A DNA stretch of 32,000 bases from an uncultured bacterium (GTDB lineage: Bacteria; Auribacterota; Erginobacteria; Erginobacterales; Erginobacteraceae). The stretch's first letter is position 1; the number at the start of each line of letters is the position of its first letter. This document shows positions 11,507-27,073 of the stretch, in pieces. Position numbers and translations under genes: made by a program. The stretch spans positions 2,925 to 34,924 of the forward strand of contig CAYXKT010000010.1 of NCBI GenBank assembly GCA_964465735.1, written 5' to 3'. The notes beneath the pieces are model-generated. The model was not told the DNA's origin, made no database searches, and saw nothing but the letters and a program-made list of their open reading frames with translations.

Positions 11507-11531
11507 ACCATAGCGAGCGGGGATTTAAAAA

Positions 11532-11631: not shown

Positions 11632-12240
11632 ATGAAAAAAACCAAGACTGAGAGCGGTTACTTTGTCCACCGATCAAGCTATGTTGACTCGGGGGCCGAG
11701 ATCGGGGAGGGGACTAAAATCTGGCACTTCAGCCATATCCAGTCCGGGGCCCGGATCGGCCGCGGCTGCTCGATCGGCCAGAACGTCAACATCGCCTCTA
11801 ACGTGAAGATTGGCGATTATGTCAAGATCCAGAACAATGTCTCGGTATATGAGGGGGTGGAGCTGGAGGATTATGTCTTCTGCGGACCCTCGATGGTCTT
11901 TACCAATATCCTCGACCCCCGGAGCGAATTTCCCCAGCGGGGAAGCGGATTTTACTTAAAGACCCTGGTCAAGCGTTCGGCCAGTATCGGGGCCAACGCC
12001 ACTGTCGTCTGCGGCCGGTCTATTGGGCGCTCGGCTTTTATCGGCGCCGGAGCCGTGGTAACCCGGGATGTCCCTGATTTCGCCCTGGTTTACGGCAACC
12101 CGGCTACGCTGAAAGGCTGGATCTGCGCCTGCGGCGAGCAGTTGAATTTTTCGGAAGCATCGGCGCTCTGCCGGCGGTGTGGTCGGAGATATCTTCGGAG
12201 GGGCGGAGTGGTGAGCCTCTTACCGGAAATCCAGGAATGA
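11632..12240 (+). CDS. Left-handed beta-helix N-acetyltransferase (WlbB/WbpD-like) with C-terminal four-cysteine zinc-ribbon-like tail
   Basis: Hexapeptide repeats IGEGTKIWHFSHIQSGARIGRGCSIGQNVNIAS; LVKRSASIGANATVVCGRSIGRSAFIGAGAVVTRDVPDFALVYGNPATLKGWICACG...CRRCG. Confidence 0.9.
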   Translation: MKKTKTESGYFVHRSSYVDSGAEIGEGTKIWHFSHIQSGARIGRGCSIGQNVNIASNVKIGDYVKIQNNVSVYEGVELEDYVFCGPSMVFTNILDPRSEFPQRGSGFYLKTLVKRSASIGANATVVCGRSIGRSAFIGAGAVVTRDVPDFALVYGNPATLKGWICACGEQLNFSEASALCRRCGRRYLRRGGVVSLLPEIQE

Positions 12241-13343
12241 TCCCCCGGCCCCGGAGAGTCCTTTATGTGATCGACAAGATGGTCCGGGCGGGGGCTCAGC
12301 GCCATCTGCGGCAGCTGCTCGCCGGTTTTGACCGCCGGGAGGTCGAACCGATGCTTTGCTGTCTGCTCAGTTCCGGGCCCCTGGCGGAGGAACTGGCGGG
12401 GGAGGGGATCGTGGTCGAGACTCTGGGGCTGGAAAATATTATGGGTTTCCGGTTCTTTCGGGCCATTGCCGGCTTGCGGCAGATCATCCGCCGGCACCGG
12501 ATCGACCTGGTCCATTCCTATCTCTTTGCCGCCAACCTGGTCTCCCCTCCAGCCGGCTTGCTTACCAATACGACGGTAATTACCAGCCGACGGGATACCG
12601 GGTTCTGGAAGACCCGCCGCCATATTCTGGCCCTTCGGGCGGTCAACCCCCTGACCGGGAAGATCACCGCCAACTCCCGGGCGGTGGTCGAATACCTTCA
12701 CCGGCGAGAAAGGGCAAAAGCGGAAAAAATTGTTTTGATCTATAATGGGGTCGAGCTCCCGGCCGGGGCAGAGATGCCTGCTCGTCCGACCGGAGCGGGC
12801 AGTAAGATTGTGATTGGCGCGCTGGGGAATATCCGTCCGGTCAAGGGCTACCGGGAACTGCTCAAGGCGGTAGGGATGCTGGCACCGGATATTGATTGGG
12901 AACTCCGGGTGGCCGGGCGGACACTGGATTACGGCTACCGGGAAGAGCTGCGGGATCTGGCCGGTGAAGAAGGACTGGGCGGTCGGATAAGTTTTATCGG
13001 AGAGGCGGCCCAACCGGAAGAATTTCTCCAGGGTCTGGACATCTTTGTCCTGCCCTCCCGGACAGAAGGATTCTCCAACGCCCTGATTGAGGCGATGGCC
13101 TGTGGTCTGCCGGTTATTGCTACCACGGTCGGCGCTAACCCGGAGGTGATCGTCGAGGGGGAGAGCGGCTTGCTGGTCAAGCCCGGGGTCCCCCAACTTT
13201 TGGCGGAGAGGCTGGAAGAACTGGCCCGGGATCCCGGGCTCCGTTTCCGTCTGGGCCGCGCGGGCCGCCGGAGGGTCGGGGAAGTTTTCAGCCGGGAGGC
13301 GATGTGTCGGAATTATCGGGATTTATATTATGAGTGGGCTTGA
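12237..13343 (+). CDS. Glycosyltransferase family 4
   Basis: MIPRPRRVLYVIDKMVRAGAQRHLRQLL start. The ATG at 12237 overlaps the previous stop as ATGA and is preferred over the upstream start at 12177. IVLIYNGVEL, GALGNIRPVKGYRELL and LDIFVLPSRTEGFSNALIEAMACGLPVIATTVGANPEVI. Confidence 0.92.
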   Translation: MIPRPRRVLYVIDKMVRAGAQRHLRQLLAGFDRREVEPMLCCLLSSGPLAEELAGEGIVVETLGLENIMGFRFFRAIAGLRQIIRRHRIDLVHSYLFAANLVSPPAGLLTNTTVITSRRDTGFWKTRRHILALRAVNPLTGKITANSRAVVEYLHRRERAKAEKIVLIYNGVELPAGAEMPARPTGAGSKIVIGALGNIRPVKGYRELLKAVGMLAPDIDWELRVAGRTLDYGYREELRDLAGEEGLGGRISFIGEAAQPEEFLQGLDIFVLPSRTEGFSNALIEAMACGLPVIATTVGANPEVIVEGESGLLVKPGVPQLLAERLEELARDPGLRFRLGRAGRRRVGEVFSREAMCRNYRDLYYEWA

Positions 13344-14160
13344 ATTCTTCTCCCGGCAGAGGCTCCGGAAGGTTCTTCCTCGCCTGGCGGCAACCTGTGC
13401 GCCTAAAGTCGGTGGGTTCAGGGTCCGGATCCTGATGTATCATCGGGTTACCGATATCCCCGGTGATCGGCTGTCGGTATCTCCGGACGAGTTTAGCCGA
13501 CAGATGGATCTCCTCCGGGCCGGAGGCCGGACGGTGGCGGATCTCTCCGCCGCCTTCTTTCGGGATGGGGCAGATCGCGAACGGAGCCGGGAGGTCCTGG
13601 TCCTGACTTTTGATGACGGTTACCGGGACTTTTATGATAATGTCTTCCCAATTCTCCGGGCCCGGCGGCTGCCGGCCGTGGTTTTTGTCGTCCCGAAATT
13701 CATTGAGGGCGCGATCGAGCTGGACCGCTACCGGGGGAGGGGAGAGGACTCTCGCCCGCTCTCCTGGGAGATGTTGGCGGAGATGAGCAAGGAGGGAATA
13801 GAGATCGGTTCCCATTCCCTGACCCATCGGGAATTGACCGGGCTGAGTCGGCCGGAAGCCGAGACCGAGATCTTGAGGTCAGCGGCGGTGATCGCCGAGC
13901 AACTGGGCCGGCGGCCGCAATGGTTCGCCTACCCCCGGGGGAAGGCCGATCCTGGGCTGGCCGAGTTGGTCCGGGCGGCCGGCTATCGGGGGGCCGTTAC
14001 CGTCCGGCCCGGGATCAATCGGTCGGGCCAGGACCGCTACCTGCTGCGCCGGACTGAGATCTCGGGAGATGACGACCGGGAAGATTTTTTGTTGAAGATT
14101 GCCGGAGGTTTTGATCTTCCTCACCGGGTCTGGCAGATAATGGCGGGGAGGAGATTATGA
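13330..14160 (+). CDS. Polysaccharide deacetylase (NodB/CE4) family protein
   Basis: ILMYHRVTD, VLTFDDGYRDFYDNVFPIL, EIGSHSLTHRELTGLS, WFAYPRGKADPGL. Confidence 0.92.
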   Translation: MSGLEFFSRQRLRKVLPRLAATCAPKVGGFRVRILMYHRVTDIPGDRLSVSPDEFSRQMDLLRAGGRTVADLSAAFFRDGADRERSREVLVLTFDDGYRDFYDNVFPILRARRLPAVVFVVPKFIEGAIELDRYRGRGEDSRPLSWEMLAEMSKEGIEIGSHSLTHRELTGLSRPEAETEILRSAAVIAEQLGRRPQWFAYPRGKADPGLAELVRAAGYRGAVTVRPGINRSGQDRYLLRRTEISGDDDREDFLLKIAGGFDLPHRVWQIMAGRRL

Positions 14161-14165
14161 AGGAT

Positions 14166-14212
14166 GGAGTGATGGACCGGATGGGGCTGCCGGTACTCCA
14201 GTACTTCAGCAC
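14166..14212 (+). repeat. Copy 2 of the 47-nt dispersed intergenic repeat
   Basis: GGAGTGATGGACCGGATGGGGCTGCCGGTACTCCAGTACTTCAGCAC; see 11532-11578. Confidence 0.75.
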
Positions 14213-14281
14213 AGCAATACTGCGTCGCTCCAATTGCCAGGTGAATCCGGATATTTCCCTGCTTGCCTCTTATCGATACCA

Positions 14282-15427
14282 ATGAACGGCAGACGAAAAA
14301 TTACGATCCTCCACCTGATTGACAGCCTTCCCCGGGAGGGGGCGGAGATGGTGGTCTATGACCTGATCCAGCAGGGAAACCGGGAGGAGTTTAATTTCCT
14401 GGTCGTTGCCCTGACTCGGGGCGGCGGGGTGGCGGAGATGCTAAAAGCGATCGATATCCCGGTCGATATCCTGAAGAGAAGATCGTTTCTTGACCTCCGG
14501 GCTTTTCGCCGGTTGCTGCGCTTGATCAGAAATCGGAGGGTGGACGTGATCCAGACTCATCTCTTTTCCAGTCATCTCTGGGGGTGGGCGGCGGCGCTTT
14601 TCTTCCCCCGGGTCCGGCTGCTGCGGGTCGAGCACAATATGTCGGAATGGAAGAATTATCTCCGCCGGGGTCTGGATTATCTGCTTTCTTTTCGGACCGA
14701 CCGGTTTGTCGCGGTCTCCAAACCGGTCCGCGGATCCCTGGTCTCGCGCTGCCGTATCGACCCGGTTAGGGTTGAGGTGATTGTGAACGGATTGAATACC
14801 GACCGACTCCGGCCAGGTTCTGACCCGGCCGCCTGGCGGCGGAAACTGGAGATTCCGGCGGAGTCAAAGATTGTGGTCACCGCCGCCGCGCTTACTTCGA
14901 AGAAAGGTCACCGGTATCTTCTGTCGGCATCCGAACTGGTCTCTGCCCATCGGGATGATGTCTATTTTCTCTTACTTGGGGAGGGGGAACTGCGGGGCGA
15001 ACTGGAAAGTTCAATCCGGGAGCGGGGGCTAACCGATCGGGTATTTCTCCTCGGCTCCCGTTCGGACGCGGTGGAGATTATCTCCCAATCCGATCTCTTT
15101 GTTCTCAGCTCGATCCGGGAGGGTCTGCCGATTTCCCTGCTGGAGGCGATGGCTCTGAACCGACCGGTGGTGGTAACCGCGGTGGGAGGATGTCCGGATC
15201 TGATTGTGGAAGGTGAAAACGGCCTCCTGGTTCAGCCCCGGGACGGGGCAGGTCTGGCGGCGGCGATCGTAAAGGTTCTCGACTCTCCGGGGCTGGGAGA
15301 ACGGCTGGGAAAAGCGGCCGCCCAAACCGTGGTTACAGGATACGGGATGCGGGGAATGATCGAAGCTTACGAACAACTCTACCGGTTGAACCGGGAGCAG
15401 CTGAGAAGACGAGTGGGGAACCAATGA
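14282..15427 (+). CDS. Glycosyltransferase family 4
   Basis: ITILHLIDSLPREGAEMVVYDLI, VIVNGLNTDRLRPG, SDLFVLSSIREGLPISLLEAMALNRPVVVTAVGGCPDLIVEGENGLLV. ATG at 14282 preferred over the upstream TTG at 14234. Confidence 0.92.
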   Translation: MNGRRKITILHLIDSLPREGAEMVVYDLIQQGNREEFNFLVVALTRGGGVAEMLKAIDIPVDILKRRSFLDLRAFRRLLRLIRNRRVDVIQTHLFSSHLWGWAAALFFPRVRLLRVEHNMSEWKNYLRRGLDYLLSFRTDRFVAVSKPVRGSLVSRCRIDPVRVEVIVNGLNTDRLRPGSDPAAWRRKLEIPAESKIVVTAAALTSKKGHRYLLSASELVSAHRDDVYFLLLGEGELRGELESSIRERGLTDRVFLLGSRSDAVEIISQSDLFVLSSIREGLPISLLEAMALNRPVVVTAVGGCPDLIVEGENGLLVQPRDGAGLAAAIVKVLDSPGLGERLGKAAAQTVVTGYGMRGMIEAYEQLYRLNREQLRRRVGNQ

Positions 15428-15726
15428 GCGATCTCAAGCCGATCCCGGAAAAACGGAAGATCCGGGTCAGAACCCGGGTGGACGAGAGACGGACCGAGAA
15501 GATTAGCGGTCGGCTGTCCCGGGTAAAGGTCGTGGCCGTATTATTTGCGGCGGCGGTCGTGGGGATTGCCCTGGGAATTGTCCTGGGCCGGGGGGCTAAC
15601 CGGATGGTCAGTGTTCATCGCCAGCAGAAGCGGATTGCTCAGTCCCTGCCGAAGTTCAACCCCGATTCTTCGGACCTGGCGGAACTGGCTCCGGTGGCGG
15701 AACCCGGCAAGTCGCCCGCGCGTTGA
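15424..15726 (+). CDS. Small single-pass membrane protein of unknown function
   Basis: 100 aa, basic N-terminus then VVAVLFAAAVVGIALGIVLG hydrophobic segment. ATGA overlap with the upstream glycosyltransferase suggests translational coupling. Confidence 0.6.
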   Translation: MSDLKPIPEKRKIRVRTRVDERRTEKISGRLSRVKVVAVLFAAAVVGIALGIVLGRGANRMVSVHRQQKRIAQSLPKFNPDSSDLAELAPVAEPGKSPAR

Positions 15727-16463
15727 ATGATCTCAATCTCCACCCGGCGGTTCATCGCTCTCCCCTCGGGCGTGGCGTTGCTTGCTGCCGGCTGGTAGGG
15801 GCCATAACCGATCGCGCTGAGAATCCCCGGCCCGATCCCCTGTTCGTCGATCAGATACCGCATTACTGAACTTGCCCGGGCGCAGCTCAACTCCCAGTTG
15901 GAAGGATAACGGAGGGTATTGATCGGAAGGTTGTCGGTATGCCCACTGATCCGGACTTCAACGGTCGGGTTGTGGAGAAAGACCCGGGCCAGAAGGTTGA
16001 GAAACTCTTTCCCTTCCGGTCTCAGATCGGCCGAGGCGGGGCGGAAGAGAAAAGGGGCGAGGGGGACGATCTTCAGCTTCCACTTGCTGACGTCAACCCG
16101 GACGAAGCGGCTTAAATTGGCGTCGATGATATACTGCTGGATCTCCCGGGCCATCTGCCGCATCTCGTCAATCCGGGCCAGCTCCCGCATCTGCTGCTCT
16201 TTTAATTCCCGGATTTTATCCAGCAGTTCCTGCTCCTCCTGGGTCAGCTCAACATCGATCGCGTCTTCTATTCTTCGGTCGGAGAGCTGGATCAAACGTT
16301 CCCCGGCGATCCAGACCACCGGGATGTTCAGGGCCAGCATCGTGGAGAGGATGATGAAGAAAGTCATCATCAAGGTGGCCAGATCGGAGTAGGTGGTCAT
16401 CCACTCCGGCGGCCAGCCGGCGCCCCCCTCGTCCGGATTGAAATTTTGCCTTCTTCGGGCCAT
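15639..16463 (-). CDS. MotB-family protein B (OmpA-like peptidoglycan-binding domain)
   Basis: Single N-terminal TM with proton-path Asp context GWPPEWMTTYSDLATLMMTFFIILSTM. OmpA-like VEVRISGHTDNLPINTLRYPSNWELSCARASSVMRYLI...NRRVEIEII. Confidence 0.9.
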   Translation of the reverse strand: MARRRQNFNPDEGGAGWPPEWMTTYSDLATLMMTFFIILSTMLALNIPVVWIAGERLIQLSDRRIEDAIDVELTQEEQELLDKIRELKEQQMRELARIDEMRQMAREIQQYIIDANLSRFVRVDVSKWKLKIVPLAPFLFRPASADLRPEGKEFLNLLARVFLHNPTVEVRISGHTDNLPINTLRYPSNWELSCARASSVMRYLIDEQGIGPGILSAIGYGPYQPAASNATPEGRAMNRRVEIEIIQRAGDLPGSATGASSARSEESGLNFGRD

Positions 16464-16482: not shown

Positions 16483-17298
16483 TTATCTCTCGGCCATCTC
16501 GGAGCCGAGATAGATATGGAACTCGACCCGGCGGTTGCGCCCCGTCAGTTCGGGGTCGTCTTCTTCATACTTGGGTCGGGAAGGGCCGTAAGCCGCGGCG
16601 GAGATCCTTTCCGGGGGGATCTCCCCCCGGTCAATGAGGTAATTGGCCGCGGCAATCGCTCGGGCGGCGGAGAGTTCCCAGTTGCTGGGGAACTGTTGCT
16701 GATGTCGGGGGTGGATCGGGGTGGAGTCGGTATGCCCCTCGATCCGGACCGAGGCTCCGGTCTCTTCAATCAGCCAGGCGATCTTGTCCAGAACCGGATA
16801 GAAAGACTGGAGAATTTCTGCCTTACCCTCCCGGAAAACCAGAGGCGCGGTAGGGATGATCACGATATCCTCCGCCGTTACCAAGAGCTCGACGTCGCCC
16901 TCCATCCTTCCCATCCGAACAAACTCCATCACCTCTTCCGCTTTCATCCGCAGGGTCCCCAGTTCGCTGAGGACGGTCTGCTGCTGTTTGCGGGGGAGCA
17001 GCTGGAATTGGGTCAGGATCCGGTACTCATCCTCGGTGACAAAATCCATCTGGCTGGTCTCGGCGGTTCCCCGGATGATATCGGCATCGTCCTCCTCCCG
17101 CATTTTGATGTATTTCTCGTCAATCCCGGCTACGGTCAGCGAATACCAGAGGACAAAGAAGGTCATCAGGATGGTTGTCATATCGGAGTAGGTGACCATC
17201 CAGTCCGGTGGCCAGTCCCCTTCGATCCCGCCGGCCCCGGACTCGGGGGCGATCCGTTCGTGCTCAATCTGGGGGGTGAGTTCAGTCTCGTCGGGCAT
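16483..17298 (-). CDS. MotB-family protein A (OmpA-like peptidoglycan-binding domain)
   Basis: DWPPDWMVTYSDMTTILMTFFVLWYSL TM; VRIEGHTDSTPIHPRHQQQFPSNWELSAARAIAAANYLI...GRNRRVEFHIYL. Start ATG at 17298 with a good Shine-Dalgarno, rather than the ORF-track start at 17388. Confidence 0.92.
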   Translation of the reverse strand: MPDETELTPQIEHERIAPESGAGGIEGDWPPDWMVTYSDMTTILMTFFVLWYSLTVAGIDEKYIKMREEDDADIIRGTAETSQMDFVTEDEYRILTQFQLLPRKQQQTVLSELGTLRMKAEEVMEFVRMGRMEGDVELLVTAEDIVIIPTAPLVFREGKAEILQSFYPVLDKIAWLIEETGASVRIEGHTDSTPIHPRHQQQFPSNWELSAARAIAAANYLIDRGEIPPERISAAAYGPSRPKYEEDDPELTGRNRRVEFHIYLGSEMAER

Positions 17299-17344
17299 AG
17301 TATGTCTCCTCCCGGGAAGAGCTTCCCGGGCCCGTCCATCGGTC

Positions 17345-18097
17345 CTACTGCCGGCCGGCCAGGTAGGCGCGGAGTTTTTCCCGGACAATCTGGGAATTGT
17401 CGCCGGCCTGGATCGAGGCGATTCCCTCGATGATGATCTCGCGGGAGAGGGCCATATTGGTATTGTAGACCCGAATCTTCCCCGCTACCGGCATACAGAT
17501 CAACCCGGCGAAGAGGATCCCGTAAAAGGTGGTCATCAACGCGACCGACATATTCGGGGCGATGGTCGAAGGGTCGGTCAGAGTCCGCAGGAGCATAATC
17601 AACCCGATCAGGGTCCCGACCATCCCGTAAAGAGGAGCGTAAACCCCGACATCCCGCCAGAGTCGTTCGTCGGCGCCGATCTTCATCTGCAGATAGTCGG
17701 AGACGGTCTCCATAATTCCCCGGGTGATCCCGGGGTCAGTCCCGTCGGCCACCAGGTCAACCCCGATATCAAGCAGGGGGTAGCGGCCCTTGGTTGAGAG
17801 TTCCCGGATCGACATAAATCCTTCCTTCCGGGCCTTGACGGCCATCTCCACGATCAGGTTGATCACCGCTTCCGGGTCCATCACCGCCCCGACCAGAGTG
17901 AAGCGGAAGGCCTTTAAGCCGCTGATGATCTGGTAGAAGCTGAAGTTAATCATAATCGCGGCCGCCGTTCCCCCAAAGACGATGATCACCGACGGGAGGT
18001 TGAAAAAGTAGGGGAGCATCTCCGGTCCCCGGACGTAGATGGAGAGGAAGACGACGCTTACTCCGAGAATAAAACCGATTATGGTGCTGAGGCGCAT
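17345..18097 (-). CDS. motA: MotA-family stator protein (MotA/TolQ/ExbB superfamily, flagellar MotA-like)
   Basis: MRLSTIIGFILGVSVVFLSIYVRG N-terminus, VIIVFGGTAAAIMINF, YAPLYGMVGTLIGLIMLLRTLTDPSTIAPNMSVALMTTFYGILFAGLICMPVAGKI. Confidence 0.95.
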   Translation of the reverse strand: MRLSTIIGFILGVSVVFLSIYVRGPEMLPYFFNLPSVIIVFGGTAAAIMINFSFYQIISGLKAFRFTLVGAVMDPEAVINLIVEMAVKARKEGFMSIRELSTKGRYPLLDIGVDLVADGTDPGITRGIMETVSDYLQMKIGADERLWRDVGVYAPLYGMVGTLIGLIMLLRTLTDPSTIAPNMSVALMTTFYGILFAGLICMPVAGKIRVYNTNMALSREIIIEGIASIQAGDNSQIVREKLRAYLAGRQ

Positions 18098-18103: not shown

Positions 18104-18310
18104 TTAACCTGTAGTTGGTTCAGGTTTAGGGGAGTTGATCTCCTGCTTGTAGCGGGTGACCTTGGTGATAATATCGTCAACCAGATCCCGGACAATATAT
18201 TGCTCCCCGGAGTTTAAGGTGATGATGGTGTCCGGCTTGGCTTCCAGCCGTTCGATCATCTCAGCGTTGATGATCAATTCCTGTCCGTTAAGCCTGGTCA
18301 GCTTGATCAT
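18104..18310 (-). CDS. flbD: FlbD-family small protein
   Basis: 68 aa: MIKLTRLNGQELIINAEMIERLEAKPDTIITLNSGEQYIVRDLVDDIITKVTRYK, the FlbD family pattern. Immediately upstream of motA; overlaps the previous stop as TAATG. Confidence 0.88.
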   Translation of the reverse strand: MIKLTRLNGQELIINAEMIERLEAKPDTIITLNSGEQYIVRDLVDDIITKVTRYKQEINSPKPEPTTG

Positions 18311-20412
18311 TATTTCTTGGCGTTCTCCCCCGCCTCGTCCTGGAAGTGGGGGACGGTAACCAGTCCGTCGTGGGAAAGCTTGCGGATAACGGCGATAATT
18401 TCGTGTTGGGCGGACAGGGTCTTACTGGACAGCTTGCGCAGCACATCCATAATCTCTTCCTGGGCCTCGACCGCCCGGGAGTGGGGGATACCCCCCATCA
18501 CCGTCAGGTCTTCTTTGAGCATCGCCCCCGCCCGTTCGGTCAGGCCGGTAAAGAACTTGGTCTGGACTTCTTCCGACGAACCCCGCAACGCCATCTTTAA
18601 AGTGGTCCGTTCCACGGTCCGAAAAATTTCGTCGATAATCGATTGATCGACGGCCAGCATTGCTTCATTGAAGGGGAGTTCCTTCCCCTCTTCCTCAATC
18701 TGGACCTTTTTGACCGATTCCATATCTTCTTTCAGGCGGGAGCGGCCCTTGTCGGTCATATTTTTCATAAACTTCGAGCGGACATCTTCGGGGGCGTCAA
18801 CCAAAGCGGCACCCAGGACTTCGATATTCAAGTTGTGGATCAAGGTCTCCACATCCTTGTCCTGAAGAGTCTTGATGTCTTCGAAGAGGAACATCCGTTT
18901 TCTGACGTCGGTAGCCATCGCCGGATTATTGCTATCCATCTTCTCCAGCAGGACCTTGGCCATCGCGTAGCGGCTGGAGGAGAGCATATCCGCCAGGACC
19001 CGGACCCCGGTCACCGGCTGATAATCTTTCCTCAAGCGGACAATCTTCAGTTTTCTCTCGAGGAAGTCCTTGATCTCGTCGGCCATATCCTCTTCCTCGG
19101 TCAACTGAGTCATTGCTCGAGCCATCTCGAACTGCTTCTCCTCGTCGAGAGCCTCAAAGACCGAGGCCGACGTCTGGGCGTCGAGCTGGGAGAGGACCGC
19201 CGCCGCTAATTTCGGCTCCTCGTCCTTGATCAGAAGGATGATATCCTCCGGATCAGTGGTCTTGATGTATTTAAATGGCTGCTCAACCAGGCTGGGGGAT
19301 CGTTCCAACTGCTGGCTCATCAGTTCCTCGAGGTTGCCCAGGACCTGGATCACCTGCCCTCCACCCCCCCCGAAACCTCCGTCTCCGGAGGGCGCGGCGG
19401 CCGCGGCCGCCGCCGGCGGTGCTCCGGGAGCGGCCGCCGGAGCACCGGGTACACCCGGCGCGCCGCCGCCGCCCAATCCGCGTCTCCGCTGTTCATCGAG
19501 CAGATCGGAAAGGGTGTCTCTCATTTCGGTCAGCAGGACGTCGGATTCCTGGGCGGGGCTGCTTAAAAGATCCCGGATCTCTTCGAGGATCCCGACATCG
19601 ATCCTCCCTCCGCCGGACCCGCTCCCGACCTGCATTTCCATCAGTTCCTTGATCCCGGTCAGGGTGGCCTCCCGGGTATCGCTGGAGATCCCGGAGAGGG
19701 CCTTCTTCAGTTCTTCCAACTCCGCCTGCCGCTGCTTTCGCTCTTCTTCTGAGAGATGCATCCCGCCGGCGGCCGCGACACCGCTCTCGGGGCTGCCGGC
19801 CTTGACCTTCCGCATCGGAAAGTAGATGGCGGCGATCAGGATTAAAAGGGCAACCAGCGCGAGAATGGAGTAGAGCAGGTAGTTCTGCTGGGCGGCGGAG
19901 GGAGGAGAGAAATCTCCCCACTTCTTGGGGATGACCCGGACCGTATCCCCCCGGGCGGGATTGATCCGGGCCCAGCGGGTGATGGCTTCCTGGATCTGCC
20001 CCGGTTCATCCGGGGTCCCCAGATCCGAAGCCGAGAGTTTTTCATCAGCTTCGACCGTGATGTGGATGCTGGAGATTTGGGCGAACATCCCCCGACTGGC
20101 CGGCAGGGCCTGCTCTCTTTGTTCGGTCGTCGGGATCCGGACCCCCGGCAGTCGCTCCAGGACCCGGGCTGTGTCAGGATCCTGGAGGTCGAAACGATCG
20201 GAGAGGGTGACTTCCACACTGACAATACTCCGGTGGGGGCCAAGCATTGTGTTAAGATTATTCTGTAGAGAGGCTTCCAGGGCGGAGGCGATCTGGGTGG
20301 CGTCGCCCCGCTGGATGGTCTGGGCCCCGGTGGCCGGGATCAAAAGGAAAAAGCATAGGACCGGGAGAAAAATGTTCCCGGAGTTTCGGCTGAAGAAAGT
20401 TATCCTTGCCAT
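18310..20412 (-). CDS. Single-chain FliF(C-terminal, RBM3-like)-TM-linker-FliG fusion protein, 700 aa
   Basis: Signal peptide MARITFFSRNSGNIFLPVLCFFLLIPATGAQ. FliF C-terminal-like ALEASLQNNLNTMLGPHRSIVSVEVTLSDRF...ITVEADEKLSASDL...INPARGDTVRVIPKKW, then TM NYLLYSILALVALLILIAAIYFP. Gly/Ala/Pro linker, then FliG-like EEPKLAAAVLSQLDAQTSASVFEAL...GVRVLADMLSS...VRKRMFLFEDI...ALRGSSEEVQTKFFTGLTERAGAMLKEDL...SRAVEAQEEIMDVLRKL. Confidence 0.88.
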   Translation of the reverse strand: MARITFFSRNSGNIFLPVLCFFLLIPATGAQTIQRGDATQIASALEASLQNNLNTMLGPHRSIVSVEVTLSDRFDLQDPDTARVLERLPGVRIPTTEQREQALPASRGMFAQISSIHITVEADEKLSASDLGTPDEPGQIQEAITRWARINPARGDTVRVIPKKWGDFSPPSAAQQNYLLYSILALVALLILIAAIYFPMRKVKAGSPESGVAAAGGMHLSEEERKQRQAELEELKKALSGISSDTREATLTGIKELMEMQVGSGSGGGRIDVGILEEIRDLLSSPAQESDVLLTEMRDTLSDLLDEQRRRGLGGGGAPGVPGAPAAAPGAPPAAAAAAAPSGDGGFGGGGGQVIQVLGNLEELMSQQLERSPSLVEQPFKYIKTTDPEDIILLIKDEEPKLAAAVLSQLDAQTSASVFEALDEEKQFEMARAMTQLTEEEDMADEIKDFLERKLKIVRLRKDYQPVTGVRVLADMLSSSRYAMAKVLLEKMDSNNPAMATDVRKRMFLFEDIKTLQDKDVETLIHNLNIEVLGAALVDAPEDVRSKFMKNMTDKGRSRLKEDMESVKKVQIEEEGKELPFNEAMLAVDQSIIDEIFRTVERTTLKMALRGSSEEVQTKFFTGLTERAGAMLKEDLTVMGGIPHSRAVEAQEEIMDVLRKLSSKTLSAQHEIIAVIRKLSHDGLVTVPHFQDEAGENAKK

Positions 20413-21246
20413 TTATTCTGCCTCGTACTCAGGGGTGGCTTCCGGTTCCTCGACTTCTCCCCCGGTAAACTCATCTTCACTGACCGGAGAAGTATTCTCC
20501 GCCAGTTCCGGGTAACGGGGGACGAGGAGGACCATCCCCGGATAGATCAAGTCGGGGAGGAAGATCTGGTCCCGGTTGGCGTGATAGAGCAGAAGCCAGC
20601 GATAAGGGTCGTTATAGATCTCCTCACGGCCGGCGATCTTCCAGAGATTGTCATCTCTTCTGACCATATAAGTATATGTCGCGGCCCGCTCCACCGCCAT
20701 CCCCGACGGGGCCGGTCCAGGGGCAACCGCTCCATCCCCGATCCAGGCGGTGGCGGGTGGAGGCGCCATCTCTAATTCCTCGATCTGGAATTCCAGGGCC
20801 TCGATCTTCAGCGCCCGGTCATCGGCGATTTTTCGCAGGGAGGCCGCCTCTTCAGTCAGTCGGTCCCTTTCCCGGCGGAGGTGTTCGTTGGCGGCCACTT
20901 CATTGAGGAGTTCCTCCCGGATCTCCCGGCAGTCCTCTGAGGCAATTAAAAACTCCTCCCGGTCGATCTTCCGAGCCGGTCGGCGGCGGGTGAATTCATC
21001 GGACCGCGGGTTGATGAAGATATAACCCCGGTTTCCCCAATCCCGGACCGTCTCTCCCCCGTAGATTCCCGGTTGGGGACTGTAGGGATAATCGATTACC
21101 CCGGTGGTCCGACCCGATTTCTTCCAGACACTCTCCAATCCCGTGCGGTCGATATTTATCGACGACTGTCCGTGCAGCTGGGGGGGGGATAAAAATCCGG
21201 AGAAAAGGAAGATGGAAATTATGATTTCGAAGGATGTCTTGAGCAT
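20413..21246 (-). CDS. Secreted coiled-coil protein with C-terminal LysM domain
   Basis: Signal peptide MLKTSFEIIISIFLFSGFLSPPQLHG. Coiled coil REIREELLNEVAANEHLRRERDRLTEEAASLRKIADDRALKIEALEFQIEELE. LysM YTYMVRRDDNLWKIAGREEIYNDPYRWLLLYHANRDQIFLPDLIYPGMVLLVP. Confidence 0.8.
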   Translation of the reverse strand: MLKTSFEIIISIFLFSGFLSPPQLHGQSSINIDRTGLESVWKKSGRTTGVIDYPYSPQPGIYGGETVRDWGNRGYIFINPRSDEFTRRRPARKIDREEFLIASEDCREIREELLNEVAANEHLRRERDRLTEEAASLRKIADDRALKIEALEFQIEELEMAPPPATAWIGDGAVAPGPAPSGMAVERAATYTYMVRRDDNLWKIAGREEIYNDPYRWLLLYHANRDQIFLPDLIYPGMVLLVPRYPELAENTSPVSEDEFTGGEVEEPEATPEYEAE

Positions 21247-21342
21247 TGCCTGAAGCCTCCCCGATACTCCAATAATTTAAGTAGTGGAGGGGGGCAGGAT
21301 ATCGCTCCCTGTTCCGCTACCTGATGCCATCTCTAATTGTGT

Positions 21343-21371
21343 AATCTACATAAATCGGAATGTATTGTAAA
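21343..21371 (-). promoter_or_regulatory. Candidate sigma70-type promoter for the minus-strand motor operon
   Basis: On the minus strand: TTTACA - 17 nt - TAGATT, about 97 nt upstream of the LysM protein start. Confidence 0.4.
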
Positions 21372-21404
21372 GAGAACTTTTTTGCTGTTCAGCCGGGGAG
21401 CGAT

Positions 21405-21433
21405 TTGACAATCAAGAGAAAATTTGGTATTGT
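21405..21433 (+). promoter_or_regulatory. Candidate sigma70-type promoter for the 21518 CDS
   Basis: TTGACA (21405-21410) - 17 nt - TATTGT (21428-21433), within the divergent intergenic region. Confidence 0.55.
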
Positions 21434-21517
21434 CGGCTTGTCTGATATTCCGGCTCAGAAGATCAAAACCGGCCTCCCCTTTCTTCACCAAAATAGCATA
21501 ACACTACTGGACCGAAG

Positions 21518-22552
21518 ATGGAAAGAAAAAGTTTCGTCCGGATTTCCCTTCATCTGCTCTGGGGGATCTTGATCATAGTAGTTCTCCTCCTGTTTTTTCG
21601 GGAACGGTTGGGCCACCTGCCCGGTTTTTTCCGGCGACTGAAAAGGGAGCCCCAGGCCCTGGTCTCGGTCTTCAAGCCTCGGGAGATGGCCGGGGTCAGT
21701 TTCTCCTTCGCTGATCCGGAGGACCGGGCCGTCTGGAAGACCTCGGGATCCCGGCTGGAGGCCGTCCCCGCTTTCTTCGGGGCGGATGAAACCTGGGGTC
21801 GGGTTACCTATCAGCCTTCCGGTTCCCCGGGTTTGCTTTTGACCGATGAGACAATGGGGGTGATGGACTGGCGGGGGGCGGAGAGTCTCTCCTTCTCCGT
21901 CTATAACCCCCAGACCTGGTCGATCAACCTCAAGATCAAGGTCAAGGATACCTCCGGCCACAGTTTCCAGAGTGAACAGGAGATCCCTCCTCGGGTCCGG
22001 ACTGTGGTCACCATCCCGGTCCGGGATATCGCTTCCCGGCTTGATCTGAGCCGGGTCGGCTACCTGAATATCTTCCTCTGGGATCCGACTACCGCCACAG
22101 ATCTGTATCTGATTGACTTCGCCTTCCCCGCCCCTGGCCGGCCCTCTGTCCCTTCCGGCCTGGTCAAATTTATGGGGCTACAGTTTCCCTCCGTGCTTCG
22201 GCCGGGAGAGGAGGTTGAAGCAGTCTTTTATTTTCTCCCCAGTCGTCCGCTTGCCGCCGACAGTGTTCTTCTGATCCGGCTCCGCCGGGGCGAGGAGCTC
22301 TTCTCCCTGGTCCGGGTTGATCCGCCCACCCCGACCAGCCGCTGGCGACCCGGACGGTTGGCCAAGGTCGGGCCGTTCCCGGTGGAGATCCCCGCCGATC
22401 TCCATCCCGGCCGCTACGATCTGGAGGCGATCCTGGCCCAGCCGCTTTCCAGCGCCCGGGGCGAGGAGCTGGTCTTTCAGCCCTACCAGAACCCGGAAAT
22501 TCTTGGTTTCAAGGTCTCGGAAATAAATGTGACCGGTGAGGGAGGGATGTGA
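21518..22552 (+). CDS. Membrane-anchored extracytoplasmic protein of unknown function; predicted all-beta N-terminal domain plus C-terminal 'YxNPEI' domain
   Basis: N-terminal TM ISLHLLWGILIIVVLLLFF. FSFADPEDRAVWK...LSFSVYNPQTWSINLKIKVKD segment, then a domain ending YQNPEILGFKVSEINV that recurs in the 22802 CDS. Confidence 0.7.
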   Translation: MERKSFVRISLHLLWGILIIVVLLLFFRERLGHLPGFFRRLKREPQALVSVFKPREMAGVSFSFADPEDRAVWKTSGSRLEAVPAFFGADETWGRVTYQPSGSPGLLLTDETMGVMDWRGAESLSFSVYNPQTWSINLKIKVKDTSGHSFQSEQEIPPRVRTVVTIPVRDIASRLDLSRVGYLNIFLWDPTTATDLYLIDFAFPAPGRPSVPSGLVKFMGLQFPSVLRPGEEVEAVFYFLPSRPLAADSVLLIRLRRGEELFSLVRVDPPTPTSRWRPGRLAKVGPFPVEIPADLHPGRYDLEAILAQPLSSARGEELVFQPYQNPEILGFKVSEINVTGEGGM

Positions 22553-22801: not shown

Positions 22802-24289
22802 ATGAAAAAAACCGTCTCTTCTGCCGCCCTTTTTGCCGCGTTTCTTTCTCTCTTCTCCCTCCCCGCGCTTTTTGGGCAGGGATATGGCTCTTATCGGACC
22901 GAGGTCCGGGAAGGTGATCCGAGACTGCAACTGGTCAGTTTCAGTCTCCCGACCGAGATCCCCCAGGGAGAACTGATCAGCGGCAGCCTCTTCTTCAAGG
23001 CGACCCGGCCCCTGGAAGAGAACCTGAAAGTATTTTTTCATCTGGTCCGCCCCGGCCAAACCAAGACCGTCCTCAACGGCGACTTCTCTCCTCCCAACTC
23101 CACCCGGCTCTGGGATGTCAACCAGGTGGTGGAGGCGGGTCCTTTCGAACTGTCGGTCCCCTTTAACCTGGAGCCGGGCGAATACGATATCCGGGCCGGA
23201 CTGCTCCAGATTGTTCGGGAGGAGGATCTGGTCCGCTATATCCGGGAGCCATACCTCAACCCGGAGATTGAAAATTTTATTATCGGCCGGCTGACGGTCC
23301 AGGGGACGGAGAGGGCCGATCTCTCGGGTCCCTCTGAGCTTGATCTGATCGCCTTCGACAACGAGGAGGAGATCATCTTCTGGGAGGCCTCGGGGGCGAA
23401 GATGGAGTTTGCCGGCTACTCCGAGGAAGGGGAAGAGACGGTCTCCGCCGTCCGGGCTACCATCCTCCCCGGGATTGTTGAGTACCCGGGGGTGAGTCTG
23501 CAGAATTTTTTTAATCTCTTGCCCGCTCGGTCCGACTGGTCACTTTACGATACTCTCCGTCTCCACCTCTCTCTTCCGCCGGGAGACTCGGCCGGTCAGC
23601 TGCGGCTTTTGATTGAAGACCGGGCCGGGCGGCGTTATGAGTCCAACATAACCGTCTCCCCGGGCCGGACCAAGCGGCTCAATCTCTCCACGGTCGATCT
23701 CAGCGGTTCGATCAATGTCTCCGCGATCCGCCGAATGAAGCTTTACCGGGTCAACCCGACCTCAGCTTTCACCTTCTACATCTCCCACCTCCAGCTGATC
23801 TCCCGGGGCCAGCCGACCGGGAAACCGGCGTTGACTTTTGTTCGGATGGAGGCGCCCGATCAGGTCCGGCGGGGCCGCCCCTTCCAGATCCGGTTCTTCT
23901 TCAGCATCGACCAGCCGATCTTCCAGAGTCATAAGCTCTTTACTCACATCTACCGGGTCAACGATATGGCCGGGAAGGCCACCTCGGATATCTCTCTTCC
24001 CCAGCCGATCCGGAACTGGCGGCTGGGCGAGGAGATAGCGGTTGATTCCGGCCCCCTGATGATCTCCACTGATGGCCCCCCCGGAACCTATGTGGTTCGG
24101 GCCGGGCTTTATGTCGTCGCCGACAGCTCCGGCCGGGGCTATGTCAAGGTCGATGACTGGTTGGCCTATGACAGCAGCCAGGAGGTGATCAACATTATCC
24201 AGCCGGATGGACCGGTCGATTACATCAAGCAGCCCTATACCAACTCCGATATCCAGAACTGGGAGGTGGGGACGATCACGGTCGAATGA
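22802..24289 (+). CDS. Secreted protein of unknown function with two 'YxNPEI' domains flanking a beta-rich domain
   Basis: Signal peptide MKKTVSSAALFAAFLSLFSLPALFG. Domain ends YLNPEIENFIIGRLTVQ and YTNSDIQNWEVGTITVE match the end of the 21518 product. Confidence 0.75.
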   Translation: MKKTVSSAALFAAFLSLFSLPALFGQGYGSYRTEVREGDPRLQLVSFSLPTEIPQGELISGSLFFKATRPLEENLKVFFHLVRPGQTKTVLNGDFSPPNSTRLWDVNQVVEAGPFELSVPFNLEPGEYDIRAGLLQIVREEDLVRYIREPYLNPEIENFIIGRLTVQGTERADLSGPSELDLIAFDNEEEIIFWEASGAKMEFAGYSEEGEETVSAVRATILPGIVEYPGVSLQNFFNLLPARSDWSLYDTLRLHLSLPPGDSAGQLRLLIEDRAGRRYESNITVSPGRTKRLNLSTVDLSGSINVSAIRRMKLYRVNPTSAFTFYISHLQLISRGQPTGKPALTFVRMEAPDQVRRGRPFQIRFFFSIDQPIFQSHKLFTHIYRVNDMAGKATSDISLPQPIRNWRLGEEIAVDSGPLMISTDGPPGTYVVRAGLYVVADSSGRGYVKVDDWLAYDSSQEVINIIQPDGPVDYIKQPYTNSDIQNWEVGTITVE

Positions 24290-25143
24290 GCCGCCGGGGG
24301 CGAAAGGTCCTGTGGCTTGGGGTCATAATCGGCGGCTCGGTGACTGTTGTCGGTTGGTTTCTTCTCTTTGTCGCCCTGGTTCTGGAGCCGAACTGGGTCA
24401 CCGTGGACCGGGTGGTGATCGAGGACGAGCGGCTCTCCGGCCCCCTGGCCGGGATGAAGATCGTCCAGATCTCCGATCTTCACCTGGAAGGCAGCCTGGG
24501 GTTCCGGGAAAAGGAATTGGTCCGGAAACTCAATCGACTTTCTCCTGATATTATCCTGATCACCGGCGATCTGGTAGAAGCCGCGGCGCCGGAGTTGGTG
24601 GAGCAGCTGGTGAAAGAGTTCCGTCCCCGGATCTGGACTTATGCCATCCTCGGCAACTCCGACCGGATTTATCTCCAGCGGGAGGGACTGGCGCGGCGGT
24701 GGAAGAAGTCCGGTCTTTCTCTGGTCGGGGGCAAATGCCTTCCGATGGCTGGAGAGAGAGCGGAGATATTCTGGCTGGCCGGGATTGATTTTCCCGGCTA
24801 CGAGGTTCCCGGGGTGGAGGCGGAGATTGATCGCATCCTGAGCGAATTTCCCGCCGGCTCTCCCCTGGTCTTTCTCTCTTACGACCCCGATCTGGCCCCG
24901 CTCCTGATCGAGAAAGGCGCCGACCTGGTGCTTTCCGGGGATACTCACGGGGGTTTGATCGGTCTTCCCGGCTGGCCGGCGATCTTTCACCGGTATTTCG
25001 GCCGGTCGAAATATATCCGGGGACTTTATCCGGTAGCTGGTGGGATTCTTTATGTTAACCGGGGGATCGCCCCCAAGGGGCTTCCGGTCCGTTTTCTCTG
25101 TCCGCCGGAGATAACCCTCTTCGAGTTTCGGCCGGTCGGATGA
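24286..25143 (+). CDS. Membrane-anchored calcineurin-like metallophosphoesterase (YkuE/YaeI-like)
   Basis: MKIVQISDLHLEG, DIILITGDLVEAA, YAILGNSD, LVLSGDTHGGLIGLP metal-binding motifs after an N-terminal TM. Confidence 0.9.
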   Translation: MSRRGRKVLWLGVIIGGSVTVVGWFLLFVALVLEPNWVTVDRVVIEDERLSGPLAGMKIVQISDLHLEGSLGFREKELVRKLNRLSPDIILITGDLVEAAAPELVEQLVKEFRPRIWTYAILGNSDRIYLQREGLARRWKKSGLSLVGGKCLPMAGERAEIFWLAGIDFPGYEVPGVEAEIDRILSEFPAGSPLVFLSYDPDLAPLLIEKGADLVLSGDTHGGLIGLPGWPAIFHRYFGRSKYIRGLYPVAGGILYVNRGIAPKGLPVRFLCPPEITLFEFRPVG

Positions 25144-25246
25144 GCGGGGCGGCAATCGGAAAGCTTTCCCGGTAATCACGGTCAGGCAGTCCCCAAACTC
25201 GGTCCGTCATTATAGTCTCTGAACGGAAAACCCGAAAACCAGGTCT

Positions 25247-25360
25247 GATTGCGAGGAGGGACGAGGAATTTATCTGTTTGGTTTGAGATGAGATTGCTTG
25301 GTCACTTCGTTGCTCGCACTGACAAATTCTCCGTGATAACAGGTTTCCGTTCAGACACTG
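25247..25360 (+). repeat. Copy 2 of the dispersed, decayed intergenic repeat (REP/MITE-like)
   Basis: GCTTGGTCACTTC exact match (25296-25308), then GACAAAT and CAGGTTT spaced as in copy 1. Remnant inverted arms GATTGCGAGGAG... / ...GCTCGCACTGACA. Confidence 0.65.
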
Positions 25361-25427
25361 TTTAAAGAGGATCGCGATGTGACAATGCCGGTTCCGGATC
25401 CCTTGGGGCGGAATCAAGGATAGAGAT

Positions 25428-26213
25428 ATGGTCAAGGAACCCAGGATTTTAATTCTGATGTACCACAGCGTCTCCGATTCCGGGGAGTACGGAAGACTGC
25501 CTGCGGACTGTCGCCCGCTTGGCTATCGGGTGGGGGTCCGCGATCTCCAAAATCATCTGGAAATTCTTCACCAAGAGGGTTGCTCTACCATCCTTCTTCA
25601 GGATCTGGCCGAGGCCCGGGCAGGGAGGGCTAAACTTCCTCCCCGTCCGGTTATCTTGACTTTTGACGATGGCTACGGGGATAATTTCTCCTCTGCCCTC
25701 CCTCTGCTCCGTTCCGCCGGCTGCCGGGCAGCCTTCTTTCTCAGCGTCTCTTACCTCGGCCGTCCGGGGATGTTGACCTGGGAGGAGGCCTCGCGCCTGG
25801 CCGCCGCCGGGATGGAGATTGGCTCTCACGGAATGAACCACGGACTTCTCTCTGGGAAAAGCCGGGCGGAACTTCGCCGGGAACTGGAAGAGTCCCGCCG
25901 GTGCCTGAAGGAAAGGCTGGGGTTGGCGGCGGAGTATTTCTCTCTCCCCCGGGGTTACCTGCCCCGGGCGCTCCCCCGGCTGGCTCTCCGGGCTGGTTAC
26001 CGCGGCCTCTGTACTTCTCGGCCGGGTTTGAATACACTCCGGACCGATCCCTTCCGGCTTTGCCGTTTCCCGGTCCGGTCCGGGATTTCTCCCGAAGAGT
26101 TTCGGGCGCTCATATCCGGACGGGGCTGGAGGTATTCCCGGATTTATCTGTCCGAGACGGCTCGGGATCTGGCCCGGATCCGTCACTACCGGCCGGGGAG
26201 AGAGGGGCGATGA
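25428..26213 (+). CDS. Polysaccharide deacetylase (NodB/CE4) family protein
   Basis: ILILMYHSVSD, VILTFDDGYGDNFSSALPLL, EIGSHGMNHGLLSGKS, YFSLPRGYLPRAL. Confidence 0.92.
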   Translation: MVKEPRILILMYHSVSDSGEYGRLPADCRPLGYRVGVRDLQNHLEILHQEGCSTILLQDLAEARAGRAKLPPRPVILTFDDGYGDNFSSALPLLRSAGCRAAFFLSVSYLGRPGMLTWEEASRLAAAGMEIGSHGMNHGLLSGKSRAELRRELEESRRCLKERLGLAAEYFSLPRGYLPRALPRLALRAGYRGLCTSRPGLNTLRTDPFRLCRFPVRSGISPEEFRALISGRGWRYSRIYLSETARDLARIRHYRPGREGR

Positions 26214-27073
26214 CGACAGCTGCCACGGATTGTGAAGTCCAGGGGGGCGAGAGGAGATCTGTATTCGAACTGGTCTTGATGACGGCCGCGGTCCTCTTTC
26301 TGTTTTTCCCCACCCTGGTCTGGATGAACGCTCGATTTTTCGAGGAGCACTCCTATTACGGACACGGCTGGCTGATCCCGCCGGCGATCGCCTTTCTCAT
26401 CTACCATCGTCGGGAATTCATCCTCTCCGTCCCGTCTCGCCCCAGCAGAGTCGGACTTTTCTGCCTGATTCTTTCTCTGGCTCTGCATCTGGGAGCCCGT
26501 TTATTCGGGGTCAATTTTCTCTCCGCGCTTGCCCTGCCGATGGTGTGTTTCAGTCTGGTCCTGGCCCGGTTCGGACCTGGCCGCAGTCGGTACCTGATCG
26601 GTCCCTTACTTCTAAGCGTGTTGATGATCCCTATTCCGGGGATCTGGATTATCGCTTTGACCTTCCGGTTGAAGATGGTCGCGGTTGATGCCGGGGTCGC
26701 CCTGGGGAGGTTGCTCGGATTGGAGATTGTTCGGGAGGGGATCGAGATCATCCTCCCCACCGCCCCCCCGGGGGAGACTCTGAAGATCGGCGATCCCTGC
26801 AGCGGTCTGCGATCGCTGTTCTCCTTTGGCGCCTTAGGCGGTTTTTTCGCCCTGCTCCTCCCGATTACTGCTCCCCGAAGGGCCATCGTCTTTTTTGCCG
26901 CGGTTCTTTTAGCCCCCTTGAGCAATCTCCTCCGGGTGGTGGCGTTGATCGTTCTGCGACAGACGGCGGGACCGGAAATCCTTGCCGGTCACTGGCATAT
27001 CGCTCTTGGGGTGGGGGTCTTCTTCTTCTGTTTCTTAATCTTTCTCCAGGTGGCGCGATGGCTGCTCCGTTAA
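26210..27073 (+). CDS. Exosortase (EpsH-related archaeosortase/exosortase family)
   Basis: Multi-pass protein with catalytic Cys in GDPCSGLRSLFSF, Arg in LSNLLRVVALI and His in AGHWHIALGV. ATG at 26210 overlaps the previous stop as ATGA. Confidence 0.92.
   Translation: MTTAATDCEVQGGERRSVFELVLMTAAVLFLFFPTLVWMNARFFEEHSYYGHGWLIPPAIAFLIYHRREFILSVPSRPSRVGLFCLILSLALHLGARLFGVNFLSALALPMVCFSLVLARFGPGRSRYLIGPLLLSVLMIPIPGIWIIALTFRLKMVAVDAGVALGRLLGLEIVREGIEIILPTAPPGETLKIGDPCSGLRSLFSFGALGGFFALLLPITAPRRAIVFFAAVLLAPLSNLLRVVALIVLRQTAGPEILAGHWHIALGVGVFFFCFLIFLQVARWLLR

Follow-up and report, generated by a model that had tools for sequence, protein, structure and literature searches.

The closest published counterpart of the protein described here is the natural FliF-FliG fusion of the Chlamydiaceae (CT719 family; Bergeron 2016, PMC4768692), found in a PVC-group organism without a flagellum, for which the only flagellar genes listed were FliF, FliL and FlhA and dedicated MotAB was not reported. 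That protein of ~330 residues consists of an RBM2-like ring-building motif (RBM), a second, unassigned RBM and a FliG_M-like segment alone, without FliG_C or a torque helix (PMC4768692). Fusions of full-length FliF to full-length FliG (945 residues) have also been engineered in Salmonella and Vibrio and work inside a complete flagellum; according to the titles of the PDB entries they form MS-rings or S-rings of 34-35 subunits (8z4d, 8z4g; PMC10941966, PMC11481574). A stretch of 32,000 nucleotides from an uncultured bacterium of the Erginobacteraceae (Auribacterota; contig CAYXKT010000010.1, positions 2,925 to 34,924; hereafter the window, within which positions are numbered) encodes a natural fusion of a different composition, in which 700 residues join RBM3 of FliF, through one transmembrane (TM) helix, to the middle and C-terminal domains of FliG. 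The gene lies in an operon with its own stator genes and, on balance, probably encodes the rotor subunit of a rotor-stator module that is independent of flagella.

Architecture of the fusion protein

The fusion is encoded by an uninterrupted open reading frame (ORF; Table 1) that comprises, in order, a signal peptide, a periplasmic domain of ~140 residues, one TM helix, a linker of ~170 residues, FliG_M and FliG_C. The N-terminal hydrophobic segment, which is basic in its n-region and has small residues at -3 and -1 behind a hydrophobic core, is predicted to be a cleavable signal peptide; an invariant Q31 follows it. Because this segment looks cleavable, the mature protein would have a single TM helix, directly after which the basic stretch MRKVK is found, consistent with the positive-inside orientation. 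The initial annotation, made from the sequence alone, had read the gene as a single polypeptide joining a C-terminal segment of FliF to FliG. Profile, fold and comparative evidence bears this out, and it is confirmed that one chain unites the ring-forming end of FliF with the torque-receiving part of FliG.

The FliF part (YscJ_FliF_C) was not detected by Pfam and NCBIfam scans of the window protein, nor was FliF found in the PDB with a shallow N-terminal profile of 14 sequences; a broader profile of the periplasmic domain, built from 52 sequences, was needed to reach it. This profile matches residues 240-441 of Salmonella FliF with E = 2.2e-12 and other FliF proteins with E values down to 3e-7, versus just E = 0.017 for SpoIIIAG. 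An exhaustive search of 1.84 billion protein representatives with the N-terminal profile gave 421 matches (a word-indexed search returned only two proteins), among them genuine FliF proteins, containing PF01514 and PF08345, that were aligned exactly over the YscJ_FliF_C region. Distant relatives with the same layout as the fusion carry significant full-length matches to PF08345 (P0034, 5e-9; P0057, 3e-9; P0028, 5e-7). The AlphaFold model of residues 1-212 has a helix-strand-strand-helix-strand topology, and when it was compared with the PDB by Foldseek, a check proposed in the initial annotation, the top 18 matches were all RBM3 or S-ring structures of FliF (7bk0_B, E = 1.2e-4, probability 1.0). 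The AlphaFold monomer models are only moderately confident, with pLDDT values of 69.9 for residues 1-212 and 58 for the whole chain. The motifs GPHRSIVSVEVTLS and NPARGDTVRV coincide with the near-invariant G58 and R154-G155-D156 of the family and align with 'IVGNGNVHAQV' and 'KRGDTLNV' of FliF, the near-invariant RGD lying ahead of the TM helix. The beta-collar, a long insertion in FliF, is shortened to ~40 residues (72-111), with a near-invariant LPG motif kept. By three independent lines of profile evidence, with which the fold agrees, the periplasmic domain is a homologue of FliF RBM3, as had been proposed for these ~140 residues.

The C-terminal 325 residues are unmistakably FliG. Pfam identifies FliG_M at residues 388-456 (E = 3.5e-11) and FliG_C at residues 490-574 and in a second stretch (E = 7.6e-35), and phmmer against the PDB finds FliG-MC of T. 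maritima (E = 3.7e-28). When the full-length AlphaFold model is searched with Foldseek, FliG structures rank first (1lkv, E = 6e-8), and the FliG_C of the fusion superposes on 1qc7 and on MotAB-bound FliG (8ucs_H) with TM-scores of 0.7-0.8. The family keeps the FxFED hinge (MFLFED in the window protein) throughout, and likewise the second Gly of the GG hinge. FliG_C is partly duplicated in tandem, such that ARM_C and the torque helix are present twice (38% identity over 32 residues, E = 3e-6): the first copy contains the torque-helix-like segment …GRSRLKEDMESV… and the second, complete copy contains …TERAGAMLKEDLTVMGG…, and therefore each subunit would have two torque-helix-like motifs. This duplication is seen only in the clade with LysM and FlbD genes (the window family, P0032, P0038 and P0085). 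Equivalents of E. coli K264, R281, D288, D289 and R297 are present in the second copy; in an alignment of 28 sequences of the Auribacterota type, R627, E634, D635 and R646 are invariant and R610 is near-invariant.

Elements of FliF and FliG that are absent from the fusion

RBM1 and RBM2 (YscJ_FliF, PF01514) have no Pfam match in the fusion, whereas control FliF proteins score 1e-55 to 1e-66 for this model, and the periplasmic part comprises only ~140 residues. In FliF, RBM1 and RBM2 house the export gate. The two TM helices of FliF and its C-terminal FliG_N-binding tail are likewise not found, the linker behind the single TM helix resembling neither FliG_N nor its binding partner. On the FliG side, the sole signal for FliG_N (PF14842) has E = 0.016 and overlaps FliG_M, and hhalign of linker residues 205-377 against an alignment of the N-terminal and middle domains of flagellar FliG gives a probability of 0.8% (96% for the FliG_M control), on which the idea of a cryptic FliG_N within the linker was rejected. 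The FliM-binding motif EHPQR is degenerate, with EEPK in place of EHPQ in the window protein; across the wider family only the E and the P are kept, and the column of R160 is variable. In the FliG equivalog model TIGR00207 the protein scores 149.4 bits against a cutoff of 226.7, the match being confined to model positions 106-304. Thus, the fusion is not a FliF by RBM1/2 and the tail, and not a FliG by FliG_N, EHPQR and the equivalog score, yet it plainly keeps the ring and torque domains.

The linker stands where the FliF C-tail and FliG_N would be. It contains conserved helices and a Gly/Ala/Pro-rich low-complexity tract, and is of low confidence in the AlphaFold model. The initial annotation had reported that RBM1, RBM2 and a recognisable FliG_N are missing, which holds, and had suggested that covalent fusion would make FliG_N and the FliF tail dispensable; the structural reading is supported, and it is plausible that the fusion takes the place of their docking.

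The operon of the fusion gene and its stator genes

Six closely packed minus-strand genes, of which the fusion gene is number two, abut or overlap one another in the order LysM-fusion-FlbD-MotA-MotB-MotB (Table 1), and promoter-like sites are confined to the divergent intergenic region at 21247-21517. The MotA protein matches PomA, MotP and MotA models end to end, below the equivalog cutoffs. In both MotB proteins Pfam finds MotB_plug and OmpA, and the channel Asp was read from the sequence in the motif TYSD[ML]. Judged by these predicted features, the stator encoded beside the fusion is of flagellar type. The arrangement of two MotB genes after a single MotA gene is conserved in most loci of the LysM/FlbD clade and in L009; the pair might form a heterodimeric B2 axle or two alternative stators. 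Zorya and other known defence systems were considered and rejected, as PADLOC had no match for the fusion, MotA, FlbD or the neighbouring genes, and the MotB proteins had just generic ZorB/OmpA similarity.

Conservation of the fusion family

The identical 700-residue protein is encoded on five contigs that derive from no fewer than two samples, and on two contigs of different sample origin the same FlbD and MotA genes follow the fusion. There are 27 full-length, colinear homologues of 686-710 residues with 50-78% identity and hundreds of invariant positions. A frameshift or a misassembly joining two genes, which the initial annotation had named as one way in which its reading might fail, is refuted by these contigs and homologues. 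A search for further proteins with the same domain architecture, also proposed there, was productive: outside the close set, ~90 of the 148 matches listed from the exhaustive search (50%-identity clusters) have an RBM3-like N-terminus followed by FliG_MC. The close-family alignment search reached 11 species-level metagenome-assembled genomes (MAGs) as well as ordinary FliG proteins. By their source labels, the MAGs with fusion-family members belong to Ca. Erginobacter occultus, Auribacterota or the 'PVC group', to Omnitrophota and to Elusimicrobiota, although these labels give no more than an outline of how far the wide family extends, few cluster members carrying organism names. The closest named relative is Ca. 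Erginobacter occultus (L011/P0003), with a copy 77% identical to the window fusion; no Auribacterota MAG from Ace Lake is reported to encode flagella, that of Ca. Erginobacter occultus included (Williams et al. 2022).

The genes around the fusion were also compared. No other flagellar genes were found within ±10 kb in 17 distinct related loci. Wherever downstream sequence is available, related loci have the fusion linked to MotA and MotB, the one exception being L034; very distant members at 18-32% identity are included in this. The block [deacetylase - metallophosphoesterase - 495-aa protein - 344-aa protein], divergent from [LysM - fusion - FlbD - MotA - MotB - MotB], recurs among Wzx/Wzy/Wza/Wzz-type genes in L001, L008, L010-L021 and L035, which are Auribacterota-type loci and more distant ones, one of them labelled Omnitrophota; not counting the window, 12 distinct related loci keep the LysM gene upstream of the fusion. 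In a second clade (L003, L006, L032 and L033), the fusion often has TPRs at its C-terminus, in one case a histidine kinase at its N-terminus, and is preceded by a UPF0164/PorV-like TPR barrel protein and a giant ORF (Table 1). The fusion lies two genes downstream of the giant ORF, and MotA-MotB come after it, sometimes past a protein of ~800 residues without known function.

The protein P0057 (L006/L007, 10001-12511) has HisKA and HATPase_c domains fused N-terminally to the RBM3-TM-FliG_MC chain; its kinase would be cytoplasmic, implying a further TM helix. Such a chain suggests that signals pass in or out at the ring. In L034 (980-16145), two PorV genes, cargo of the type IX secretion system (T9SS) type (Por_Secre_tail/CHU_C) and a Roadblock/LC7 (MglB-like) gene are present near the fusion.

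Genes surrounding the operon in the window

Across the divergent intergenic region from the operon lie two genes for exported paralogues of 344 and 495 residues that share the C-terminal motif PY.NPEI..F..G.I.V and accompany the motor operon, in synteny, at all Auribacterota-type loci. Neither has a Pfam, NCBIfam or PADLOC match, and the 495-residue protein also has no match in the PDB. The motor operon is situated inside a Wzx/Wzy-type exopolysaccharide (EPS) locus (7584-15427 and 24286-31288) that encodes several GT4/GT2 transferases, a flippase, exosortase EpsH and EpsI/DUF3485 (Table 1), an initiating sugar transferase and, in all, two polysaccharide deacetylases; EPS genes also flank the motor module in L001, L008 and L035. 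The other genes of the window encode ClpP/ClpX, isoprenoid enzymes and RseP in addition to the polysaccharide locus. Beyond the operon, no flagellar genes were found in the 32 kb, including none for FliM/FliN, the export apparatus, rod, hook or filament. The ORFs of a polysaccharide deacetylase and the exosortase overlap by ~300 nucleotides, and the true start of the exosortase is probably downstream of its first in-frame start codon.

Table 1. Features of the fusion gene, its operon and neighbouring genes in the window, and of second-clade loci (positions in the respective locus)
Feature	Position	Strand	Remarks
RBM3-TM-FliG(M,C) fusion, whole ORF	18310-20412	minus	ATG start, 700 aa, uninterrupted
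Predicted signal peptide, aa 1-30	20323-20412	minus	sequence; Q31 invariant; model helix 12-23
FliF RBM3-like ring-building domain, periplasmic, aa 31-170	19903-20322	minus	profile and fold
Single TM helix, aa 176-200 (NYLLYSILALVALLILIAAIYFP)	19813-19887	minus	model helix 173-204; near-invariant in family
Cytoplasmic linker, aa 201-377	19282-19812	minus	alignment, model, hhalign
FliG middle domain (ARM_M), aa 378-465	19018-19281	minus	Pfam, PDB, motif alignment
MFLFED hinge and first, truncated FliG_C copy, aa 490-575	18688-18945	minus	ARM_C and torque-helix-like RLKEDMESV
Second, complete FliG_C copy, aa 583-690	18343-18666	minus	PDB match, alignments
277-aa exported coiled-coil protein, C-terminal LysM (peptidoglycan-binding)	20413-21246	minus	operon gene 1, abuts fusion
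FlbD/SwrD-family small protein	18104-18310	minus	start overlaps stop of fusion gene
MotA/PomA-type stator A subunit	17345-18097	minus	R90, P173, P222 equivalents kept; R at E98 position, E at +1
MotB paralogue 1	16483-17388	minus	plug, conserved Asp in TYSDM, OmpA-like peptidoglycan-binding domain
MotB paralogue 2	15639-16463	minus	plug, conserved Asp in TYSDL, OmpA-like domain
344-aa membrane-anchored protein of unknown fold	21518-22552	plus	divergent; conserved position; paralogue of 495-aa protein
495-aa secreted protein of unknown fold	22802-24289	plus	conserved position
Metallophosphoesterase	24286-25143	plus	conserved neighbour, Auribacterota- and Omnitrophota-type loci
Polysaccharide deacetylase	25428-26213	plus	conserved neighbour, Auribacterota- and Omnitrophota-type loci
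Exosortase EpsH	25901-27073		GTG start
EpsI/DUF3485	27058-27705
Second-clade neighbourhood, L032	1-8090		giant ORF of 16,931 aa
Second-clade neighbourhood, L033	1-7823		giant ORF of 14,454 aa
Second-clade neighbourhood, L006	47-8368		giant ORF of 2,773 aa
Second-clade neighbourhood, L003	1-7973		giant ORF of more than 3,202 aa

Proposed function and alternative explanations

Since the operon has its own MotA and MotB genes, in bacteria reported to be without flagella, the fusion is probably part of a stripped-down rotor-stator unit that does not depend on a flagellum. The domain homologies, the conserved architecture, the operon linkage and the conservation of catalytic and torque residues are the observations from which a mechanism can be sketched. 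The N-terminus would be exported, and the RBM3-like domain would oligomerise on the inner membrane, forming a ring in the periplasm like the S-ring of FliF, with each subunit spanning the membrane by one TM helix and the long linkers suspending a 1:1 ring of FliG_M and FliG_C domains beneath it. The stators would consist of MotA and both MotB proteins from the operon, whose OmpA-like domains would anchor them to peptidoglycan, and would probably be helped by FlbD/SwrD; ion flow through them would push on the torque helices of FliG_C and turn the ring. As RBM1/2, the type III export gate, the rod, FliG_N and the FliM/FliN contacts are absent, such a ring could neither build nor switch a flagellum.

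The mechanical output would go to the cell envelope, to polysaccharide or to giant secreted proteins, a conjecture from the gene neighbourhood. The co-operonic LysM protein is a candidate periplasmic coupling or anchoring partner; the two exported paralogues, the deacetylase and the metallophosphoesterase are its other conserved neighbours, with the Wzx/Wzy and exosortase polysaccharide genes further out, and in other clades the neighbours of the module are the outer-membrane-barrel/TPR protein and the giant secreted protein. A more specific version of the proposal, put forward tentatively, is that the fusion and its private MotA, MotB and FlbD form an autonomous minimal rotary motor, spinning in the inner membrane without an axle, export gate or filament, that may power a non-flagellar envelope process such as the extrusion or surface transport of EPS or of giant adhesin-like proteins, and that may be either a repurposed flagellar-motor core or a surviving relative of the pre-flagellar rotor.

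Several points weigh against an active rotor-stator module of this kind. The charge pairings described for the flagellar motor are MotA R90 with FliG D288/289 and MotA E98 with FliG R281 (PMC12505986). The position of MotA E98 (PomA E96) is occupied by R in all Auribacterota-type MotA proteins (loop KARKEGFMSIRE in the window) and in those of L008 and L010, with D or E at +1 in all but two of these fusion-linked proteins, whereas the Glu is retained in the flagellar MotA proteins of control loci and in the MotA of L032 from the giant-ORF clade; E. coli MotA and Vibrio PomA served as references in this alignment. The R281 equivalent of FliG is often Gly in the wider family, so that the canonical charge pairs are not all intact, and no simple pattern emerged by which charge swaps in the FliG torque helix would compensate for MotA E98R. 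L034 has no MotA or MotB within 10 kb of the fusion. Ring formation and rotation are argued from homology and from the behaviour of engineered fusions, and the output from the neighbouring genes. The absence of flagellar genes was judged from flanks of ±10 kb and one published MAG analysis, not from the window's own genome, and Ca. Auribacter fodinae, of the same phylum, is reported to encode flagella (Williams et al. 2022).

One alternative is that the fusion is a streamlined MS-ring/C-ring protein of a real flagellum, in a genome that has its other flagellar genes elsewhere and no separate FliF or FliG. Both halves of the fusion are homologous to the flagellar proteins, FlbD-MotA-MotB is a typical flagellar gene order, one Auribacterota MAG is reported to encode flagella, and engineered FliF-FliG fusions assemble rings, as stated in their PDB entry titles (8z4d; PMC10941966, PMC11481574). 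Nevertheless, this explanation is improbable, since the protein lacks RBM1 and RBM2, where the export gate would be housed, and its FliM-binding motif is degenerate, no other flagellar gene accompanies the FlbD/MotA/two-MotB operon in the 32 kb or its counterparts in the flanks of the 17 related loci, a 77%-identical copy comes from the MAG of Ca. Erginobacter occultus, which is reported to be non-flagellate, and the string 'flagell' is absent from the two Omnitrophota surveys that were searched. For the same reasons the initial annotation, in which the fusion was implicitly a flagellar component, fails in its framing; it had also overlooked that FliG_C is partly duplicated, that there are dedicated stator genes, how large the family is and that a natural fusion had been published from the Chlamydiaceae.

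The module might alternatively be a non-rotating signalling platform, in which a membrane-anchored FliG-like array recruits or gates MotAB channels, or is braked by cyclic di-GMP effectors, senses the state of the envelope or surface and controls polysaccharide production. Its embedding in EPS loci would fit this, as would the histidine kinase and the response-regulator-GGDEF protein that adjoin it in L008, the kinase domains of P0057, a PilZ gene near L032 and the altered charge at MotA E98. We regard a platform of this kind as unlikely, since the torque helix, the hinges, MotA P173 and P222, the MotB Asp and plug, and FlbD/SwrD are all conserved, which argues that force generation has been retained, and a ring-building motif would be an odd requirement for a simple receptor. 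The losses of RBM1/2, FliG_N and the FliM contacts, together with a low-complexity linker that resembles junk, could also mean that the protein is a decaying remnant of a flagellum since lost, or an assembly or annotation artefact merging two genes. This explanation is effectively refuted by the recovery of the identical ORF on five contigs from at least two samples, by the 27 colinear homologues at 50-78% identity and the ~90 further 50%-identity clusters of the same layout among the matches listed, and by synteny kept across lineages labelled as different phyla.

If the flagellum-independent rotor-stator reading is true, the fusion would be the smallest natural rotor known, with a single protein providing both rings, the one in the membrane and the one that receives torque, at a fixed 1:1 ratio and served by dedicated stators. 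It would provide a tractable system for asking what suffices for MotAB-driven rotation, and how the size of an RBM3 ring sets the copy number of FliG. A core of FliF-RBM3, FliG and MotAB could then occur without the type III export apparatus or the axial structures, a modularity that bears on models of flagellar origin in which the rotor-stator and the secretion system evolved separately. That the module is linked so consistently to polysaccharide loci and to giant ORFs suggests that these little-studied phyla have an energy-coupled machine of the envelope that has so far escaped recognition.

Comparison with known systems

No paper describing the RBM3-TM-FliG fusion family was found in a literature search. 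The family is not covered by a study of MotAB evolution (PMC12505986), and surveys of Omnitrophota giant genes and genomes make no mention of MotA, FliG, flagella or a MotAB/FliG module.

Like the fusion of the Chlamydiaceae, the window protein occurs naturally and unites, in one chain, ring-building motif(s) in the periplasm, a TM helix and a FliG-like domain in the cytoplasm. It differs in its length of 700 residues, in having RBM3 only, in having FliG_M together with a duplicated FliG_C, and in its full stator operon; the two were compared by their described architectures. With the canonical FliF/FliG/MotAB-PomAB motor it shares a homologous RBM3 ring domain and FliG_M/FliG_C torque helix, a PomA-like MotA and the gene order FlbD-MotA-MotB. 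Unlike that motor, it has no RBM1/2, second TM helix, FliF tail, FliG_N or intact EHPQR, its stoichiometry is covalently 1:1, its FliG_C is partly duplicated, and its stator genes include two MotB paralogues and a MotA with E98 replaced by R. The engineered fusions of Salmonella and Vibrio, as their PDB entries are titled, likewise have FliF and FliG in one polypeptide, and the MS-rings or S-rings that they form show a 1:1 covalent rotor to be mechanically viable; they differ from the window fusion in containing both proteins at full length and in their setting within a complete flagellum.

Ion-driven motors of the 5:2 type that work on the envelope, on adhesins or on the polysaccharide coat include GldLM of T9SS gliding, Myxococcus AglRQS with Glt/Nfs, ExbBD-TonB and TolQR. 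A point in common is that the neighbourhoods of the window family have EPS genes, PorV/UPF0164-like barrels and giant secreted proteins. GldLM, AglRQS, ExbBD and TolQR are generic non-flagellar stator homologues without a FliG-like rotor ring, whereas the stator encoded in the window is of flagellar type and is proposed to act on a ring of FliG.

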